A stretch of 61,579 nt of DNA from Candidatus Thorarchaeota archaeon (GCA_016839445.1 JAEOUG010000032.1:1-61579), one strand, 5' to 3'; counted from the first letter of the stretch, positions 41,455 to 61,579 are shown. Notes: generated by a model not told the origin, from the sequence alone. Made by a program: numbers and translations.

Positions 41455-42939
41455 CTAGTTACGCCGCCTGACATAGAACGTCAGCACCAGAATCATGACA
41501 ACTGACACACCGGCAAGGAGTACGAAGGAGACTGCATTCCCTGCATCCAATTCCGACATCAATGCATCAGCCATATCATCCCAGGCATCTGCAATTGACA
41601 CAAGATGGATCTGAATCGCAGTCAATTCATCCTCGAACGGCTCAGCTGCTGCAATGATATCGCCACTGGTTGTGAACTGACAGTGGTAGGCAATCTTCTC
41701 GAGGCAGTCTGTGAGGTCAGACCCGCCGCCTGAGTAGTCGAAGTCGTTAAGGCTTGCATTGCTTGTCAGAGCGTCAAAGTGAAGGAGAGCATCAGTTGCA
41801 GACCTGACAAATGCATCGAGATTGAACCCTGGCAGCACTGAAGACACATGGGTAAGCGCTGCTTGGAAGGCTGCATACTGGAGAGATAGCCTCTGCTCCA
41901 GATTGACTCCGAAGCTATAGAGGTATGCTGACTTCTCCGCAGGGCTCATGTTGCCGATTGATTCGAAATAGTCAGACAACCGGATGGAGGTCATATCAAG
42001 AGCGAGCTCCCTGAAGGCATCCGACCCGAAGTGAACCCCGGGAATAGGACCCTTCTCAGGGACATGCGAATCCCAATCTCCCTGCAGACGTGACAGGATA
42101 TATTCCGCAATGTTACGCTCAGCGTGGTTCACACCCTCTCCAGTGGGCTGGACAACCACCATCCCATACATCCTGTTCCATGCCGCCTCGAGCGTTGTGA
42201 AGTTGACTGCGTAGTTCCATTCAGATTGTGAAGGACGTCCGTAGCTCTCACCAATTATCCCGATTCCAGGGTCGGCCAAGTAGACTACTCCTATCGCTTC
42301 ATCGAAGCCTGTCGACACGACCGAATGACCAGAACCTGTTTCTATCCAGCCCATTGATCTAAGCAGGTCATAGTCAGAATGAGGGAGGTAGTAGGGATTC
42401 ACTAGGAGCTCGACCGGATAGCCGTCCTTAATCGTGCTCTTCAGAATGCCAAAGGCCTGGTCCCACCCATCTATCACCACGAAATCGACACCTGCAAGCT
42501 GCTGAGCTGCTGCGAAGGTCGCTCCATGATTGCTGTTATTAACATCCACAATCAGGGTCACGTTCAACCCGTAGAACTCCGCAAGCTGTTTCTGAGGAAC
42601 CATCTGGCGGAAGTGGGGGCCGTCCCAGAAGACTCTCTCACTTCCAGAGCTGATGTAGAGAGATGTGAAACCTATCCCAGAAGCAGCACACACCTCCGGA
42701 AGGCCAAATGGTATGCCAGCAGCCCTGAATGTCATGGCAAGGCAAGACCAGTGACATAGACCATTGACCTGCTGCCACTCATATTCAACATCCGTTACAT
42801 TGGCAGATTCAGTGCTGCCTATGATGTGCGGTGCTGTGTAGGACACAAGTGATGATGTACCCAGAGCCGCTGTATTCAGACCAATGGACAAGACTAACAC
42901 CGATACTAGTACGAAGCAATTCAATCTGATACCGTTCAT
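41455..42939 (-). CDS. Secreted, C-terminally anchored papain-fold C39-like/BtrH-like peptidase
   Basis: Signal peptide; QQVNGLCHWSC (Gln/Cys), GHSVVSTGFD (His), VYLADP (Asp); C-terminal TM + RRR. Confidence 0.7.
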   Translation of the reverse strand: MNGIRLNCFVLVSVLVLSIGLNTAALGTSSLVSYTAPHIIGSTESANVTDVEYEWQQVNGLCHWSCLAMTFRAAGIPFGLPEVCAASGIGFTSLYISSGSERVFWDGPHFRQMVPQKQLAEFYGLNVTLIVDVNNSNHGATFAAAQQLAGVDFVVIDGWDQAFGILKSTIKDGYPVELLVNPYYLPHSDYDLLRSMGWIETGSGHSVVSTGFDEAIGVVYLADPGIGIIGESYGRPSQSEWNYAVNFTTLEAAWNRMYGMVVVQPTGEGVNHAERNIAEYILSRLQGDWDSHVPEKGPIPGVHFGSDAFRELALDMTSIRLSDYFESIGNMSPAEKSAYLYSFGVNLEQRLSLQYAAFQAALTHVSSVLPGFNLDAFVRSATDALLHFDALTSNASLNDFDYSGGGSDLTDCLEKIAYHCQFTTSGDIIAAAEPFEDELTAIQIHLVSIADAWDDMADALMSELDAGNAVSFVLLAGVSVVMILVLTFYVRRRN

Positions 42940-42967
42940 CTTGGTTCCTCCGAGGTGGTTGTGACAG

Positions 42968-42994
42968 GGTAGAGGGAGTTTCAATCCCTCCACC
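42968..42994 (-). terminator. Hairpin just after the ABC permease stop
   Basis: 10-bp stem on the minus strand (one G-U): GGTAGAGGGA-GTTTCAA-TCCCTCCACC on +. Confidence 0.35.
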
Positions 42995-43007
42995 TCTGCC
43001 ACCCTCT

Positions 43008-44678
43008 CTAGGCGTCAGGCTTAGAGAGGCTTCTCACTCCCAAGAACAGAAGGAGAAATCCGATGGACCACTGCACCAACAAGCCGAAGAAGGACATGCC
43101 GTACATGATGTTTTCAGGCCCAAAGATCGCGGCAATGAACCCGAAGAAATCGATGCGGAATACTATGCTTGCGATAATGTCAATGAAGAGGACCCCAATG
43201 ATGGAGAACTCCGCCAACATAGTGGATGACATGATGTTCATCTGGTGAGCAGGTGATTTGGTGTCCTCGTAGTTCGGATTGCCTGCTGTGATTCCTGTCG
43301 CGATGAACATTCCTCCCAACACGGCCATATAGCCGAATCCGAGAACGATGAGAACCTGCGCCAGAGTGAGCCCCATTATGAAATACAGAGCCAAGGTGGG
43401 GAGCACCGCAAGAGGCACACAGATGAGTGCCCCTGATACAACTCTGCTCCTCACAAACCGGGACGCGCCAGACGGTGAGCCCTGAATGATCCAGAGCTGG
43501 TCCTTGCTCTCAAGAAATCCGGCACCCGCGAATGGGAACGTGCCAACAAGCGAGAGCATCACAGGGAGCATGAAGAAGACCTCACCGAACTGCATGAACT
43601 CGGCACTCACGGCCGTCAAGACGATGGGCATCATGATGGCCAGAACGAGACCATAGGCTATCTTCGAGAGGTTCTGTGCCTTCCGTGTGAAATCCTTGAG
43701 GCTTGTGACAACCAAGGCTCCGAATGCGCCAGGACTGAGCCGACGGATACCTCTCAGAATGGAGTTCTCGCGGCCCACAGTCGTGACAGTCTCTGTTCGA
43801 GAACCAGCCTCGATGGTGAAGATCCTATCAGCCGCCACGAGGCCAAGAGCCACGGTGCCAGCAACGAAGACGCCCATCAAGAACGAATCAACATACGCGC
43901 TCAGCTGCAGAACACCTGCGAACTCGGCGGCAGTCAATCCGATGCCGTTGAATGTGACAGTGCTCCACGTCATGAGGTCTGCGAACCAAGTCGATGGGAG
44001 AAGGTACATCGCGTTCATGCCCATCATCTCAGATATGGCGGGCAAGAAGAACATCAGTCCGTACATCGGCACGACGACTATGACACCCACAACCATAGAC
44101 AAGGCCTTTGCGATGTCGTTTCCTCTGGATGACTCACCAAGACGTGCCTGAACCACCGATGTGACGAGGTTCGACAGCCAAATGGTGGACATTGAGAGGA
44201 GCGCCAACACTCCATATACAAGTAGCTGTCCAAGGATGGACACCTGGAAGGCCAACATGAAGGGAGAGATCAGCAGCGGAGCCAAGATTATGATGATGAT
44301 GCCGTAGACAGGAATCTTGCCCAAGAAGGTTCCCGAGATTATGTTCCTGGTACTGACATTGTTGGACATGAATATCTCCCAATGCCCAATCTTGATCTCT
44401 TGGAGTGCCTGCGCGAGGGGAAACATCAGCAGGAGCAGCCACAAGAACAACATCAGCGACCGTATCATCCCTGGAAAGATAGACCTCAGCAGTCCAACGA
44501 TGAACTCCATGGGGAAGAGGGCAGTAAGGATACCTCCCATCATCATTGGGGCAACAACAACTGCCCAGACGAGGGTCAGTGCCACAATGATGCCCATGTA
44601 GAGTGTTCTTCGGGCCCGCATGAAGGACGTAAGGACATAGTACTCCGCCTTTGCTATTGCAAGCCAAGCTCGACTCAT
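43008..44678 (-). CDS. Large ABC exporter permease (ABC-2-like, about 12-14 TM, two halves)
   Basis: Highly hydrophobic; AWLAIAKAE and ALVVTSLKDFTR begin two halves; directly follows the ATPase. ATG 44678 after GGAGGT. Confidence 0.75.
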   Translation of the reverse strand: MSRAWLAIAKAEYYVLTSFMRARRTLYMGIIVALTLVWAVVVAPMMMGGILTALFPMEFIVGLLRSIFPGMIRSLMLFLWLLLLMFPLAQALQEIKIGHWEIFMSNNVSTRNIISGTFLGKIPVYGIIIIILAPLLISPFMLAFQVSILGQLLVYGVLALLSMSTIWLSNLVTSVVQARLGESSRGNDIAKALSMVVGVIVVVPMYGLMFFLPAISEMMGMNAMYLLPSTWFADLMTWSTVTFNGIGLTAAEFAGVLQLSAYVDSFLMGVFVAGTVALGLVAADRIFTIEAGSRTETVTTVGRENSILRGIRRLSPGAFGALVVTSLKDFTRKAQNLSKIAYGLVLAIMMPIVLTAVSAEFMQFGEVFFMLPVMLSLVGTFPFAGAGFLESKDQLWIIQGSPSGASRFVRSRVVSGALICVPLAVLPTLALYFIMGLTLAQVLIVLGFGYMAVLGGMFIATGITAGNPNYEDTKSPAHQMNIMSSTMLAEFSIIGVLFIDIIASIVFRIDFFGFIAAIFGPENIMYGMSFFGLLVQWSIGFLLLFLGVRSLSKPDA

Positions 44679-44683
44679 TTTGC

Positions 44684-45454
44684 CTACCTCCATGCAAGCA
44701 GAGCCTTTCGATCTACGTGACCACCGACGACCTTCAGATAGGCATCCTCAAGGTCGTGGACTCCAAGTGATTCAATAATCTCAGATGGCGGCCCCAGAGT
44801 GACTAGCTGTCCCTCATTGAGTATCCCGATGATGTCGCAGACATCTTCTGCAAAGCTCGTCTGATGAGTACAGATGAAGAAGCTAGTTTCCGTTTCCTCA
44901 GCCAGTGCAAGAATCAGGTCCTTGACCAGTGCACTTGCTGCAGGATCCAGCCGAGATGTGGGCTCGTCCAAGAAGACGAGCTTTGGCTCGTGAAGTAGCG
45001 TAGATGCGACCAGCACCTTCTGTTTCATACCAGATGAGTACGACTCAAGGAGGTCGTTCTGGCGTCCCTCCAGACCTAGCATGCCCAGCAGTATATCGAT
45101 GCGTCTGCTCAGACCCTCTCCGCTCAGACCATTCAGTGCTCCAATGAACTCTAGGAACTCGACAGCTGACAGCTTCGAATACAGACCTGGCGACTCCGGC
45201 AGGAGCCCAGTGACTGCTTTCACACGGTCTCTGTCAATGCTGACATCGTGTCCACACACTGTTGCATGTCCACTCGTCTGCCTGAGTAGCCCAGACAGAA
45301 TTCGAACAGTGGTCGTCTTCCCTGCACCATTTGGTCCAAGGAAGCCAAACCTACTGCCGGATGCCACCTCCAAGTTCAGATCTCTTACGGCGTGAACAGG
45401 CCCAAAGGACTTGTTCAGGCCTTCAGTTCGTATGACTATTCCGTTTCCAGCCAA
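44684..45454 (-). CDS. ABC transporter ATP-binding protein (drug/peptide exporter type)
   Basis: GPNGAGKTT, YSSGMKQK, VFLDEPT, H-loop. TTG 45454 is the likely start. Confidence 0.93.
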   Translation of the reverse strand: MAGNGIVIRTEGLNKSFGPVHAVRDLNLEVASGSRFGFLGPNGAGKTTTVRILSGLLRQTSGHATVCGHDVSIDRDRVKAVTGLLPESPGLYSKLSAVEFLEFIGALNGLSGEGLSRRIDILLGMLGLEGRQNDLLESYSSGMKQKVLVASTLLHEPKLVFLDEPTSRLDPAASALVKDLILALAEETETSFFICTHQTSFAEDVCDIIGILNEGQLVTLGPPSEIIESLGVHDLEDAYLKVVGGHVDRKALLAWR

Positions 45455-45473
45455 TTCTTTTCCGACCTTTTGC

Positions 45474-45553
45474 CTGTAAATGTTTACAGCGCTATGGTAA
45501 AGATTTAAGAGCATTCGGATATAAATGTTTACCAGAGCGCAGTAAAACTTGAC
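45474..45553. promoter_or_regulatory. Four GTAAA-N2-TTTAC palindromic boxes in divergent promoter
   Basis: 45476 GTAAATGTTTAC, 45497 GTAAAGATTTAA, 45521 ATAAATGTTTAC, 45542 GTAAAACTTGAC; 21-bp spacing within each pair. Confidence 0.7.
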
Positions 45554-45592
45554 CAAAAGAGTTTTTAGCGCGAAGAAGCGAGGAAACTGGTA

Positions 45593-46246
45593 ATGGGTCT
45601 ACTCTCAACTCACGAAGCAGTGGTCTGGTGGGAATACCATCACGGAAAGCCTACCGCAGATATCTTCAGTGAGTATGAGAAGCCCATGAAGATTCCCGAG
45701 TACGTATTCCAGATACTCAGAAGTGAATTGGACAGCAAGAGTGCGGATCCTCGGAAACTTGAGAAGGAATTGGAGAAGTACCGTGAGGTCCAGTTCTCAA
45801 GCTCGGCCTATGTATCTAGAGTGCTAAGTAGAGCCAAATCGAAGATCGAAGAGACCCTGAGACAGCATGCTAACAGCCATAGACTTGATGTCGAGTCTGT
45901 TGACGGCGAGAAGGGCCTCCTCACAGGATTCGACTACCAGGCCAACACAAGCGTCTACATCGTATTCACCTTGGGACTTGGTGTTATCGTCTGGTACGAG
46001 CACAGCGATTATGGTGGCAAGCTCTGCGACGGAAGTCCGAACGCAGGTGCAAAGACAGACGGAAAGCCGTGCCCGAAGAGGGAAGAGTGCCGAGAGACCC
46101 TTGACACAGTCCTGACGGAGTACAACCTCACTCTGAACACCAAGGAAGAAGAGCTTTACATGACTGAACAATCGGTCAGGATCTTCGCGAAGCTAGGCCA
46201 GAAACAGCTTCCTCGCTATCAAAGAGAAACACAAGAGAGTGATTAG
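45593..46246 (+). CDS. Putative HTH transcriptional regulator with C-terminal Cys cluster
   Basis: LSTHEAVVW..G.PTADI ... SSAYVSRVLSRAKSKI resembles a sigma70-r4/LuxR HTH; WYEH..C..CPKREEC. Confidence 0.6.
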   Translation: MGLLSTHEAVVWWEYHHGKPTADIFSEYEKPMKIPEYVFQILRSELDSKSADPRKLEKELEKYREVQFSSSAYVSRVLSRAKSKIEETLRQHANSHRLDVESVDGEKGLLTGFDYQANTSVYIVFTLGLGVIVWYEHSDYGGKLCDGSPNAGAKTDGKPCPKREECRETLDTVLTEYNLTLNTKEEELYMTEQSVRIFAKLGQKQLPRYQRETQESD

Positions 46247-46249
46247 AAA

Positions 46250-46972
46250 GTGAACGAGGAAGCAATACTCACAGAAATCCCACCCGTGGAGAACTTCACG
46301 CGTGGCAAGACATTCAGACCGTCAAGTGCATTCAGGAACAAGTACTGGTTTGTTGCGGTGTTCTTCGCATTCTTCACCTGGCTGGTGGCCATTGGAGGCA
46401 CATACGGCATTTCGTACTTCATCGCCATGGAAGAGGGATGGACTGATACCTATTGGCAGCTAATGGCCGATCTCGTCCCATTGGTGTCGTACTGGACCTG
46501 GATTGTGCACCTGTTCTGGCTGATTCCAGCCCTGATTGGCATACCAGTATACATTCGCTCGATTCAGTACTCGGTCATTGCGGAAACAGGTGAGGCACTA
46601 CCAGAGATCACAGTACGAAAAGGCATCTTCAACGTGACTCGCAAGCATGTGCCGCTGAGGACCATCACAAATCTCAGTTCCAGGCAGGGACTGATTGACA
46701 GGCTCTTCGGGATAGGGAACGTTGAAATCGAAACCGCTGGCTACTCTGGCTCTACGCAGATGGGGCCTGAGGAGAAGCTTGAGGGAATCAGATTCTACAA
46801 GGACTTGGCGGACTACATCCTGTTTGAGATGAGGAAGCTCAGGACTCCCTATGCTACTGGCACAGAGGTAGTAGCCGAAGATAGGCCAGTCCCAAGGATG
46901 GATGATTCGCTGCAGGACGAGATACTCGTAGCTATCCGCGATATCCGCGAGATACTCAGGACTAAACTCTAG
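46250..46972 (+). CDS. Membrane-anchored bacterial PH domain (bPH_2/YdbS-like) protein 1
   Basis: Two TM helices, then KGIFNVTRKHVPLRTITNL..QGLIDRLFGIGNVEIETAG. Confidence 0.82.
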   Translation: MNEEAILTEIPPVENFTRGKTFRPSSAFRNKYWFVAVFFAFFTWLVAIGGTYGISYFIAMEEGWTDTYWQLMADLVPLVSYWTWIVHLFWLIPALIGIPVYIRSIQYSVIAETGEALPEITVRKGIFNVTRKHVPLRTITNLSSRQGLIDRLFGIGNVEIETAGYSGSTQMGPEEKLEGIRFYKDLADYILFEMRKLRTPYATGTEVVAEDRPVPRMDDSLQDEILVAIRDIREILRTKL

Positions 46973-47007
46973 TGGAGAATGAAGAGAATGAAACGTAACA
47001 ATGTGGG

Positions 47008-47130
47008 ATGCATGGATGCTTGGAGGGAACAGGCTTGAATGGATTTCGAGCTGTTCTCTCGGTTGTGCTCCTAGTCATAGCGCTAGTTCTCTTCGTGATC
47101 TTTCTGCTCATGAACATGGGAGCTTTGTGA
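47008..47130 (+). CDS. 40-aa single-TM membrane peptide (missed by ORF track)
   Basis: MHGCLEGTGLNGFRAVLSVVLLVIALVLFVIFLLMNMGAL; lies inside the operon gap. TTG starts at 47020 and 47035 are also possible. Confidence 0.5.
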   Translation: MHGCLEGTGLNGFRAVLSVVLLVIALVLFVIFLLMNMGAL

Positions 47131-47159
47131 GAACCTATGAATGGGAATGAATCAAGGAG

Positions 47160-47924
47160 ATGAAAGGCGTGGAAGGAGAACGAAAGGGTGTTGTGATCAA
47201 GCCTCCAATGGAGGCAGTGACAAGTGGAAGAGTATTCAGACCGGATTCACGATTCAAGTATAAGCAGTGGTTGGAAGGGACTATCGTCCTGTTCTTCATG
47301 TGGGGACTGGCCATGTTGTGCCTTGTCGCCGCTGCCTACTTCAATGGCCTCGACCCCCCGTACTACCCGTTTGCTAGCTACCTGAACGACTGGTTCATCA
47401 CAGTGAACGTGGTGTACTTCATTATCTCCCTCTTCTGGTACGTCCCCATGATGATCATCATCCCCTTCTATGTTCGCACATTCGAGTATAGCGTAAGCTC
47501 GAAAGAAGGTGCCGCATCTCCAGAGGTCTATGTCCGTAAGGGCCTGCTCAATGTTACTAAGAAGCATGTGCCATTCAGAACTGTGACAAATATCTTGAGC
47601 AGGGCAGGACCACTCGACCGGCTCTTCGGCATAGGCACCATTGAGATTGAGACTGCAGGATTCTCAGGGAGTCCTCAGGGAGGCCGGTCGCCCGAAGAGA
47701 AGATTGAGGGGATTGCCTTCTACGAGGAGGTACGCGATTATATCTTACAGGAGCTTCGCCGCTTCAGAGACCCCTATGTCACCGGAACTGAGGTTGTTCG
47801 ACCGGTGGAGAAGCCCGTGCCGCAACTACCTGAGAGTCTGGACGACGAGATGCTCATAACACTTCGCGCCATAAGAGACGTGCTGGCGAGGATAGAGAAG
47901 AAAATGGACAAGGAGGACAAATAA
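47160..47924 (+). CDS. bPH_2/YdbS-like protein 2
   Basis: Two TM; KGLLNVTKKHVPFRTVTNI..GPLDRLFGIGTIEIETAG. Confidence 0.82.
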   Translation: MKGVEGERKGVVIKPPMEAVTSGRVFRPDSRFKYKQWLEGTIVLFFMWGLAMLCLVAAAYFNGLDPPYYPFASYLNDWFITVNVVYFIISLFWYVPMMIIIPFYVRTFEYSVSSKEGAASPEVYVRKGLLNVTKKHVPFRTVTNILSRAGPLDRLFGIGTIEIETAGFSGSPQGGRSPEEKIEGIAFYEEVRDYILQELRRFRDPYVTGTEVVRPVEKPVPQLPESLDDEMLITLRAIRDVLARIEKKMDKEDK

Positions 47925-47925
47925 G

Positions 47926-48624
47926 ATGTCAGTTGGAGAGAAGGTCATCAAGCCACCCATGGACGAGATTGCCAGAGGGAAGGTGTTCGGGCCGTCAAAA
48001 CGACTTCGGAACAAGAACTGGTTCATGGCAGTCGTCGGTGCGGTGGCGCTATGGCTGCTCATTCTAGGACTTATGGGTCTGATGCTTCACTTCCTCGCAC
48101 CCGGGCTCTTCCTCCTCTGGTGGGATGACATCAGTCTATGGTATTGGGTCATCACTGCCTTCTGGTTTATCCCATACGTGGTGCTCTATCCCATCTACCT
48201 GAGGGCCTTCGAATACTCGGTGATTGCTAAGTCTGGCGAAACAATGCCCGAGATTTACGTCAAGAAGGGACTGATCAACATCACTCGCAAGCATGTGCCC
48301 TTCCGCACCATTACGAACATAGCCAGCAGAGCGGGACCCTTCGACAGGCTCTTCGGCATCGGATCGATTGAGATCGAAACAGCGGGATTCTCAGGTCAGG
48401 CCATGTCCGGTCCAGAGGAAAAGCTCGAAGGGTTGACATTCTACGAGGAATTGCGGGACTTCATCCTGATGGAGCTTCGTAAGTTCAAGGACCCATACGT
48501 TACAGGGACAGAGGTTTCTCAGGCTCGGGAAGATACACCAGCTGCTCCAACAGGAAACATCGAGGACGACATTCTGTTGGTTCTGAGAGAGATACGGGAC
48601 CTTCTGAGAGAAGAACGTGAGTGA
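47926..48624 (+). CDS. bPH_2/YdbS-like protein 3
   Basis: Two TM; KGLINITRKHVPFRTITNI..GPFDRLFGIGSIEIETAG. Confidence 0.82.
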   Translation: MSVGEKVIKPPMDEIARGKVFGPSKRLRNKNWFMAVVGAVALWLLILGLMGLMLHFLAPGLFLLWWDDISLWYWVITAFWFIPYVVLYPIYLRAFEYSVIAKSGETMPEIYVKKGLINITRKHVPFRTITNIASRAGPFDRLFGIGSIEIETAGFSGQAMSGPEEKLEGLTFYEELRDFILMELRKFKDPYVTGTEVSQAREDTPAAPTGNIEDDILLVLREIRDLLREERE

Positions 48625-48636
48625 GGGGGACAAGCC

Positions 48637-49404
48637 TTGAACGAGCGGAGCGGTCGTATCATCAAGCCACCTGTACAGAAGGTGGTAAGCGGCCGTGTCT
48701 TCAGACCATCACGGATTCTCATGTTCAAGAAGTGGCTGAAGCTTTTGGTTGTCATCGTTCTGGCATGGCTTGGTTTATGGGGTGCTCTCTTCAGTCACCC
48801 GGTGCTTCAAGATCTGCTTCTGTTGGTGTCTGAGCCGCTGGAGATCGTCGTCAATCTCGGCTGGACTCTTGTTAGTCTATACTATTGGTTGGGTGCAGCA
48901 GTTCTTCTTGCCGTAGCGGCGGTCTACATCTCTCTCTACGTCAGCCGAATAGAGTATTCTGTACGAGGATGGGAGGGCGAGGCCATGCCCGAGGTGGCAG
49001 TGACCAAGGGGATCATCAACATAACCAAGAAGTTTGTGCCATTCAGGACCATCGTGTTTCTACGCACGCGTAGAGGACCCTTTGACAGACTGCTTGGAAT
49101 AGGGAACGTGATGGTTGAGACTGCGGGAGGAGAAACACCGCAGCAGCCATCAGGGATCATAGCACTTCTAATCAACAGCCTCTCAAGCTCTGCCACTGAA
49201 GAGCGAATCGAGGGAATAAGGTTCCATGAGGAATTGAGGGACTTCATCCTTCAAGAACTGAGAGGCTTCGGGCGCACTCCAATCTTCGCGGAGCAAACGC
49301 GATATGCCGCAGGCAGAACCAGAATCCTGAACAGGGACACACTGGCTGCATTCCAGGAGATTCGAGATGCCTTGGTGGACAGGCGTGAATCAGCTACAGC
49401 CTGA
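48637..49404 (+). CDS. bPH_2/YdbS-like protein 4 (most divergent)
   Basis: Two TM; KGIINITKKFVPFRTI..GPFDRLLGIGNVMVETAG, with an insertion after ETAG. Confidence 0.8.
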   Translation: MNERSGRIIKPPVQKVVSGRVFRPSRILMFKKWLKLLVVIVLAWLGLWGALFSHPVLQDLLLLVSEPLEIVVNLGWTLVSLYYWLGAAVLLAVAAVYISLYVSRIEYSVRGWEGEAMPEVAVTKGIINITKKFVPFRTIVFLRTRRGPFDRLLGIGNVMVETAGGETPQQPSGIIALLINSLSSSATEERIEGIRFHEELRDFILQELRGFGRTPIFAEQTRYAAGRTRILNRDTLAAFQEIRDALVDRRESATA

Positions 49405-60798: not shown

Positions 60799-61179
60799 CG
60801 AATTGCGCGATTCCTCAAGCCAAGCCCGTCTTACATGGAGATGAAACTCCGATTAATGTTCTTGTGTGCGAAGAGGCCAATCGGAAGTGGGAAGCAGGTG
60901 TGATTCACTATGGCGAACTCCGATGACCTCTACATGTATACAGTAGGACAGTGCGGTCCTGAGGTGATTGTACATGTGGGGTTAACCATACTGAATCCGG
61001 GTGACAGTGCTGCCAAGCCAAGAGACAGTCATAGAGCCAGTCCTCTCAACGGACGGAGGATAGAAACCACTGACTCTCACTAAGCAGCTGTCAATGAAAA
61101 ATAAGACAACAAAGGATGGAATACGTCGATTACACAACTCGCTTGGACAACTCTAGGTACTGTGCGAAACACACTTTCA

Positions 61180-61579
<400 letters not shown>

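Follow-up and report, generated by a model that had tools for sequence, protein, structure and literature searches.

A stretch of 61,579 bases from a Candidatus Thorarchaeota archaeon (GCA_016839445.1 JAEOUG010000032.1:1-61579), referred to below in its full length as the window, carries at 43008-49404 a module in which an ATP-binding cassette (ABC) exporter is encoded divergently from a putative helix-turn-helix (HTH) regulator and four paralogous membrane proteins (PH1-PH4) bearing a pleckstrin homology (PH) domain of the bPH_2 family. An earlier reading, made by a model from the sequence alone (the sequence-only reading), had proposed all of these as one co-regulated module for envelope defence or sensing. 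The conserved core is smaller than that, namely the regulator and at least one bPH_2 protein with two transmembrane segments; a PH gene lies directly 3' of the regulator, on the same strand, in 70 of the 71 loci that have a downstream gene. We hold with moderate confidence that the locus encodes a repressor circuit of its own, which would control a membrane complex of PH proteins together with the exporter and would act against membrane-active compounds. No description of the module was found in the searched literature, and it combines known kinds of parts (PH membrane proteins, an exporter and a divergent, operator-controlled regulator) around a regulator family that is unannotated. The genes, the junctions of 3, 1 and 12 bp, the 138-bp region between the two arms and its four phased palindromes, as described earlier, are all present in the map of open reading frames (ORFs) and the motif scan, and the supposed Asgard origin is borne out, the stretch being archaeal and the homologues of the locus proteins being labelled Thorarchaeota or Promethearchaeota.

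The regulator and its PH protein partner

The survey scanned one genome per species and gave 131 confirmed loci, of which 80 were kept; linkage was counted by tblastn and ORF clustering, and six loci without a regulator ORF from the greedy ORF picker were excluded. The regulator and PH genes are adjacent in 33 of 34 Thor-labelled loci, in all 24 labelled Bathyarchaeia or Thermoproteota and in all 13 otherwise labelled; L042 is the sole locus with no recognisable PH gene next after the regulator. Bathyarchaeia-labelled loci have a single PH gene each and variable flanks, with a gap of 2 nt between regulator and PH gene where checked (e.g., L067). Within the phylum, the regulator profile was found in 69/85 genomes of the window's own family, in 15/19 of a second and, more weakly, in 20/22 of a third, where three bPH_2 genes stand in tandem after a distant homologue of the regulator, and in none of the 135 genomes of the largest family. 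The pair is common to Thorarchaeia, a Loki-like lineage and Bathyarchaeia. An archaeal regulator–PH pair with its operator was also seen on a contig labelled as a Patescibacteria-group bacterium (L084), which is probably mis-binned. At L017:2954-4135 the regulator match starts from residue 36 and abuts a truncated permease, and the ATPase gene and control region appear to have been deleted.

The regulator has no match in Pfam, in NCBIfam or, by profile search, among PDB sequences, and its 220 homologues are all hypothetical where named. In a set of 1.84 billion protein-cluster representatives 101 matched it at E<=0.001, and none of the ten of these that were scanned rose above a Pfam cut-off (throughout, the curated gathering score). 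The AlphaFold2 (AF2) model, with a predicted local distance difference test (pLDDT) score of 86.9, begins with short helices and a long helix (71-95), followed by a four-stranded sheet (99-135), a Cys loop of low confidence and helices at the C-terminus, and by this predicted fold the regulator is an HTH protein of the sigma-70-region-4/LuxR-like kind, in agreement with the sequence-only reading. The N-terminal HTH-like segment is split in the alignment by a variable insertion, a recognition-helix-like stretch is invariant, and so are H137, C145, C160 and C166. The window regulator is not matched by the LuxR/GerE HTH profile (PF00196), and its paralogues give sub-threshold GerE scores (16-22.6 bits, cut-off 23.5). 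Only a single regulator copy was seen in the own genome of the window by the regulator profile. Shorter paralogues of about 155 aa, with an HTH and the same His/Cys pattern (L085:2932-3399, L087:2941-3411 and L090:2938-3402), occur several per genome in related archaea and have, next to them, genes for membrane or secreted proteins of other kinds instead of PH genes.

Although a whole-model Foldseek search of the regulator against PDB returned no row at E<=0.001, the HTH model superposes on EnfR (TON_1525, 8hno) of Thermococcus onnurineus, its best structural match. EnfR is described, in the accessible part of its report, as a dimeric repressor of the Tfx family whose HTH is called a 'flag', its long helix a 'stem' and its alpha/beta part a 'note-head', and which binds a 36-bp pseudo-palindrome centred 21 bp upstream of a start codon; within the same part, its authors, who found no domain for binding an effector, suggested that the family has an anti-repressor as its partner (PMC10570040). 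The order of elements in our model agrees with that of Tfx proteins (N-terminal HTH, long helix, alpha/beta domain) and the layouts are alike, but the regulator has no TFX_C domain and its HTH is split. Membership of the Tfx family was rejected at the sequence level: TFX_C (PF14601) matched neither the regulator nor anything else in its own genome; across the phylum 2 of 151 genomes had it, and within the window's family 0 of 26. An hhalign comparison of the regulator alignment with an Asgard Tfx was not significant (probability 0.9%, E 0.06). The cluster of one His and three Cys is not known as a Tfx feature.

All four PH proteins (232-255 aa, PH2-PH4 being 38-47% identical to PH1) exceed the PF03703 (bPH_2) cut-off of 22 with 30.1-44.6 bits (E 1.7e-11 to 5.9e-7), the match spanning profile positions 12-62 of 78, and they are the only bPH_2 matches in their own genome (2.9 Mb, 89.8% complete). 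Two hydrophobic segments precede the PH domain in each paralog, the first of PH4 being split in two by the scan; the four two-transmembrane bPH_2 paralogs of the sequence-only reading thus stand. Their alignment places a 12-residue insertion inside the PH domain of PH4. Both tails of the PH proteins, N-terminal and C-terminal, are strongly conserved and, given the basic N-terminus and the hairpin, would lie with the PH domain in the cytoplasm.

The PH fold had been taken as established for bPH_2. As far as the accessible text goes, Xu et al. (2010; PMC2817789) reported structures of PF08000, to which DUF304 (now bPH_2) was tied by a weak profile score, and for that reason the present fold check adds something. 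The AF2 model of PH2 (pLDDT 80.3) has an N-terminal strand, two long helices and a beta sandwich with a capping helix, followed in its C-terminal part by a disordered linker and a helix. A profile search of PDB sequences with the PH proteins found nothing; the Foldseek search with PH2 placed bacterial PH structures (3dcx, 3hsa) at ranks 1-3 with probabilities of 0.97-1.00 and target TM-scores of 0.44-0.51, and eukaryotic domains (the PH domain of USP37, and PTB domains) in lower rows. The assignment of PH1-PH4 as PH proteins holds, judged from the hidden Markov model (HMM) scores and the predicted fold.

The PH tree, made with FastTree only, has 94 rows, drawn from the window, from L086 and L088 and from 41 of the 80 loci, with PH ORFs under 200 aa dropped; its outgroup was assumed. 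PH1 falls in a position-1 clade (7 rows, support 100), PH2 in a position-2 clade (6 rows, support 98), PH3 in a clade of 14 rows (support 99) and PH4, on a long branch, in a last-position clade (14 rows, support 100), and such position-specific clades indicate that the four-gene array is old and conserved in its order. Three PH paralogs of a distant lineage (L086, L088) form a clade of their own, which, given the assumed root, suggests that the PH expansion occurred at least twice, independently in that lineage. The sequence-only reading also saw in this expansion a bearing on PH-domain evolution; this now looks weak, bPH_2 being matched as well in the Bacillus, Synechococcus, Corynebacterium and Haloferax control genomes, with no link found here to eukaryotic PH proteins.

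Control region and candidate operator

The pattern GTAAANNTTTAC, with at most one mismatch, matches four times in the window, at 45476, 45497, 45521 and 45542 (start-to-start spacing 21/24/21), and this palindrome, GTAAA-N2-TTTAC, has no window copy outside 45476-45553; shuffled windows contain 0.44 on average and none of 100 shuffles reaches four. All four sites lie between the two arms, in an intergenic region that is 138 bp long when the ATPase is taken to start at the TTG at 45454. A 32-nt inverted repeat (81% complementary) has its arms at 45476-45507 and 45522-45553. The region consists of two mirror-image units: one, with sites 3 and 4, faces the regulator operon, and the other, with sites 2 and 1, faces the ATPase operon. 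An A/T stretch read by eye as TATA-like appears to overlap each inner site. Since the sites of each pair are 21 bp apart, both should be on the same face of the helix, and with one site over the TATA-like element and the other near the expected start, occupancy should repress both promoters; on general knowledge of archaeal promoters, a site over or just after the TATA-like element suggests repression.

The paired pattern has matches in the own genome only at 45477-45552 (four matches, that is, two pairs on both strands, compared with one match for the reversed control pattern), and because of this uniqueness the circuit looks dedicated to the locus. Among the 72 related loci with at least 160 nt upstream of the regulator, 58 carry at least one site with no more than one mismatch in the 160 nt before the regulator start, a perfect one in 39, whereas the rest of the related loci gives a background of 24 sites per 1,003,737 nt. 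The layout of sites 3 and 4 recurs in related loci ahead of the regulator gene; in single-PH loci a site directly 3' of the TATA-like element is followed 21 bp on, immediately ahead of the start codon, by a weaker second one, and the distant lineage (L086, L088) has a variant palindrome at the equivalent place.

Exporter arm, peptidase and micropeptide

The leftward arm (Table 1) was earlier described as an ATPase and a permease; both are there, their genes overlapping by 10 nt, but a C39-like peptidase gene, beginning 5 bp past the permease on the same strand, also belongs to it. The ATPase matches PF00005 (E 6e-25, 88.9 bits, cut-off 25), and its best NCBIfam match is TIGR01188 drrA (E 8.6e-62), although at 209.1 bits it stays below the cut-off of 312.45. 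Its homologues in related loci align from TTG 45454, and longer starts would precede the presumed promoter. The permease (561 aa) has 12-14 hydrophobic segments in two groups flanking a hydrophilic linker. An internal duplication was rejected, the best repeat (E 0.13) being not significant, and the 'two-half' permease of the sequence-only reading therefore stands as a description of topology only. It has 481 homologues, all names listed being hypothetical proteins of Thorarchaeota or Promethearchaeota; the nearest named Atlas clusters (12TM_1, ABC_tran_2 and ABC_export) are leads only. A homologue in L053, 26% identical, reaches ABC2_membrane_3 with 31.9 bits (cut-off 31.6); this locus has two ABC systems within 6 kb, the homologue belonging to one of them. 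The HMM searches accordingly bear out bPH_2 in the four paralogs and PF00005 in the ATPase, but not an ABC-2 match for the window permease.

Table 1. Features of the module and of its control region (positions in the window)
Feature	Position	Strand	Basis or remark
C39-like cysteine peptidase, membrane-anchored	41455..43002	-	PF13529; end gene of leftward operon
ABC permease, ~12 transmembrane segments, two halves, divergent ABC-2-like	43008..44693	-	topology; no Pfam match
ABC ATPase, DrrA-like	44684..45454	-	PF00005; longest ORF reaches 45556
Shared control region, 138 bp, two mirrored putative promoter/operator units	45455..45592		inverted repeat
Putative operator site 1, no mismatch to GTAAA-N2-TTTAC, outer in leftward unit	45476..45487		motif scan
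Putative operator site 2, 1 mismatch, overlaps leftward TATA-like element	45497..45508		motif scan
Putative operator site 3, 1 mismatch, overlaps rightward TATA-like element	45521..45532		motif scan
Putative operator site 4, 1 mismatch, about the expected rightward transcription start	45542..45553		motif scan
Regulator, 217 aa, unannotated family	45593..46246	+	HTH by predicted fold
PH1, two-transmembrane hairpin, predicted cytoplasmic bPH_2, C-terminal helix	46250..46972	+	PF03703, E 1.7e-11
Single-transmembrane micropeptide, probably ~31 aa	47035..47130	+	longest ORF starts 47008; hydropathy 3.55
PH2, architecture as PH1	47160..47924	+	PF03703, E 1e-8
PH3, architecture as PH1	47926..48624	+	PF03703, E 4.1e-9
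PH4, architecture as PH1, most divergent	48637..49404	+	PF03703, E 5.9e-7

An adjacent, divergent ATPase is present in 31 of the 66 loci with upstream sequence (Thor-labelled 24/33, otherwise labelled 7/13, Bathyarchaeia-labelled 0/20). The exporter is mostly absent from the Bathyarchaeia-labelled loci and is therefore not needed for the core function. These counts qualify the co-occurrence of regulator, PH genes and exporter that had been supposed: the neighbourhood survey found the first two together almost everywhere, but not the divergent ABC arm, and this arm falls outside the conserved core. It could even be that only the regulator–PH operon is functional and that the ABC and peptidase genes are neighbours by Thorarchaeota ancestry, separately regulated; Thor-labelled loci agree in their wider gene order, and the divergent arm is missing in 9/33 of these as well as from all 20 labelled Bathyarchaeia. 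We consider this very unlikely, because the ABC side carries the operator pair in mirror image, because in L028 two sites remain beside the ATPase, 4.4 kb from the regulator, and because in two Bathyarchaeia loci (L067, L081) an ATPase and an ABC2_membrane_3 permease (E 4.7e-34), different from the window exporter, lie between operator and regulator on the same strand. The last finding suggests that ABC exporters were repeatedly brought under the control of a single operator, and the three together argue that the ABC link is functional and not merely inherited; to that extent the co-regulation proposed earlier looks upheld. The ATPase–permease pair is tandemly duplicated upstream of the regulator in L025, L027, L028 and L032.

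The peptidase matches PF13529 (Peptidase_C39_2; E 2.6e-6, 28.5 bits, cut-off 24), has hydrophobic segments at residues 29-47 and 491-509 and an alternative ATG start 21 codons in, and occupies the same position in 14/80 related loci. Its residues Q77, C83, H226 and D244 are identical to the window in at least 13 of 14 aligned sequences (window included), and their conservation suggests catalytic roles for C83/H226/Q77/D244. A small MarR/TrmB-like winged-helix gene (PF01047, E 5e-7), absent from the window, was seen in L018 (5600-5881), L025-L028, L033, L034, L038 and L040; it adjoins a C39-like or permease gene in eight of these nine loci, the L025 copy being at the far end of its locus, and may encode a second regulator of the leftward arm.

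The small ORF between PH1 and PH2, earlier given as a 40-aa transmembrane peptide starting at 47008, is more likely to start at TTG 47035 and to have about 31 aa, a GGAGG sitting 7 nt upstream of that codon. A tblastn search with the 40-aa ORF at E 1e-5 found no relative; weak matches (E 0.007-5) directly 3' of PH genes prompted an ORF survey, in which ORFs of about 30-32 aa with one transmembrane segment were found to follow PH1, the last PH gene or both in many loci with several PH genes. Counted without sequence seeds, they number 32 in 41,310 nt after PH genes and 10 in 2,110,478 nt elsewhere; of the multi-PH loci 23 of 37 have such an ORF, and of the single-PH loci 1 of 37. By these counts, the small ORF is a predicted member of a conserved family of single-transmembrane micropeptides, and not noise. 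An ORF of 70-73 aa with two transmembrane segments, without a Pfam match and with no window counterpart, lies between the first micropeptide and PH2 in L008 (11507-11719) and likewise in L009, L012, L071, L080 and L082. Relatives encode a second micropeptide after PH4, for which the window has no space, since a xylose-isomerase-like TIM-barrel gene (PF01261; 49394-50236, -) runs towards PH4 from the opposite side, its reading frame sharing 11 nt with that of PH4. Further away, the 3' end of an archaeal large-subunit rRNA gene (61179-61579, -) is truncated by the window edge.

The micropeptide and the peptidase together raise the question of a bacteriocin-like system, in which the locus would make the micropeptide as its product and export it by way of the PH proteins and the ABC transporter, with the C39-like peptidase as a processing or immunity factor. 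The enrichment of micropeptide ORFs beside PH genes and the conserved Q/C/H/D residues of the peptidase are consistent with such a system, and the parts parallel the enterocin DD14 cluster of Enterococcus faecalis, which, from what is accessible of its description, combines an ABC transporter and two PH proteins with genes for small peptides (PMC8657885). The peptides, nonetheless, are almost wholly hydrophobic single-transmembrane segments (hydropathy about 3 or more), which suits membrane subunits better than it does cationic peptides meant for secretion; their near confinement to multi-PH loci is likewise at odds with a product, and the peptidase is a separate, surface-anchored protein of limited occurrence. 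We therefore regard a bacteriocin-like role as highly improbable. A known anti-phage defence system was rejected too: with PADLOC, the regulator, PH proteins, permease and peptidase have no match to known anti-phage defence, and the ATPase alone matches, to generic ABC/AAA models.

Proposed mechanism and comparison with known systems

In the mechanism that we favour, the regulator, with its Tfx/EnfR-like layout, most likely binds the GTAAA-N2-TTTAC palindromes as dimers, and its occupancy would repress both its own operon (regulator, PH1, micropeptide and PH2-PH4) and the divergent one (ABC ATPase, permease and C39-like surface peptidase). A signal, possibly redox or a metal acting at the Cys/His cluster, would release it and turn on both arms together. 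The four PH paralogs and the micropeptide probably form one heteromeric complex, with the PH domains and the N- and C-terminal tails facing the cytoplasm, and this complex, together with the ABC-2-like exporter, may expel or shield against membrane-active compounds, on the model of YdbST and of DdE/DdF with DdHIJ in Firmicutes. The role in handling such compounds, like the handling of antimicrobial peptides, lipids or membrane stress put forward in the sequence-only reading, is suggested by analogy with these two bacterial systems only.

The first of them, as its accessible reports describe it, agrees with what the sequence-only reading said of it, ydbST being part of the sigma-W regulon of Bacillus subtilis and protecting against amylocyclicin (PMC3498285, PMC8144471); ydbT/ydbS mutations are also reported to arise in Staphylococcus aureus under peptide selection, in what could be consulted of bioRxiv 10.64898/2026.07.05.736553. 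Like our locus, B. subtilis YdbS/YdbT and the S. aureus homologues have a transmembrane hairpin followed by a cytoplasmic bPH_2 domain and are encoded by tandem genes, and YdbS/YdbT are under a dedicated stress-type regulator and are linked to susceptibility to membrane-active peptides. According to the accessible text of PMC8657885, the pair consists of a one-PH protein beside a three-PH protein with six transmembrane segments, whereas the locus has four single-PH paralogs and no three-PH protein of the YdbT type (no COG3402/COG3428 pair), an archaeal HTH regulator with operators instead of an extracytoplasmic function (ECF) sigma factor and, unlike YdbS/YdbT, an ABC exporter, a micropeptide and a peptidase attached. 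In the enterocin DD14 cluster (DdE/DdF and DdHIJ), the PH proteins likewise adjoin an ABC transporter and small peptide genes, and the same accessible text states that ddE and ddF, located beside ABC genes, are needed for export of the enterocin (PMC8657885); the peptides of the locus, however, are hydrophobic transmembrane segments and not cationic bacteriocins, its ABC genes are on the divergent arm, and its conserved core includes neither peptide nor transporter. DrrAB-type or ABC-2 exporters under a local, divergently encoded repressor share with it a DrrA-like ATPase and a multi-transmembrane permease divergent from a regulator across a shared operator, although here the permease is outside the curated ABC-2 models and the regulator family is unannotated.

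Several points weigh against this repressor-and-exporter mechanism. The analogy of function is drawn from bacteria, which have different envelopes, and from YdbT and DdF, which have three PH domains where the locus has no such protein. For the PH fold the Foldseek search gave weak E-values (0.03-0.05 for the top rows, with no row at E<=0.001), and the window permease was matched neither in Pfam, PF01061 and PF12698 included, nor in NCBIfam at E<=0.1. Beside the pair in Bathyarchaeia-labelled loci, ABC genes are divergent in 0/20 and on the same strand in 2/20, and because the Thor-labelled loci share a wider synteny, part of the ABC linkage may be inheritance. As for the circuit, 14 of the 72 loci have no site at <=1 mismatch, some of them bearing variant palindromes; the TATA boxes and transcription starts come from a by-eye reading, and it is from co-conservation that we infer binding of the regulator to the palindromes.

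The main rival explanation would make the PH proteins a sensor that holds or modifies the regulator at the membrane, leaving the exporter and the peptidase as the sole effectors; perturbation of the membrane would then release the regulator, as with an anti-sigma factor or an anti-repressor. It accounts for the invariance of the regulator–PH pair where exporters vary, for the gaps of 2-3 nt, which suggest coupled translation and a fixed stoichiometry, and for the strong conservation of PH tails predicted to be cytoplasmic, and it recalls the anti-repressor partner proposed for EnfR's family. On the other hand, four or three order-conserved PH paralogs with micropeptides look more like a structural assembly, and the regulator could sense a signal by its own conserved Cys/His cluster. 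Prediction of a complex of the regulator with PH2, run with the regulator alignment and a PH alignment of 31 of about 150 PH ORFs, scored 0.09 against a mark of 0.32, which is no evidence either way. Overall, we judge the sensor explanation unlikely.

The locus offers a candidate regulator–operator pair for uncultured archaea, with an operator conserved across phyla and directly testable in vitro, and cognate pairs of this kind are rare for Asgard archaea and Bathyarchaeia. The function of bPH_2 proteins is poorly understood even in bacteria, and the locus gives them a defined genetic context. With its micropeptides, its recurring ABC exporters and its paralogs specific to each position, this context can help to direct structural studies of their assemblies. 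If the PH proteins were the sensing partner, a new route of archaeal envelope-stress signalling would be at hand. A further and still more doubtful proposal is that the regulator–PH pair is a device for signalling from membrane to DNA, in which PH proteins would sense the bilayer and control a Tfx-like Cys/His regulator by contact; if true, it would be the archaeal counterpart of sigma/anti-sigma envelope-stress signalling, and PH domains would couple the state of the membrane to gene expression in the prokaryotes that are most closely related to eukaryotes.

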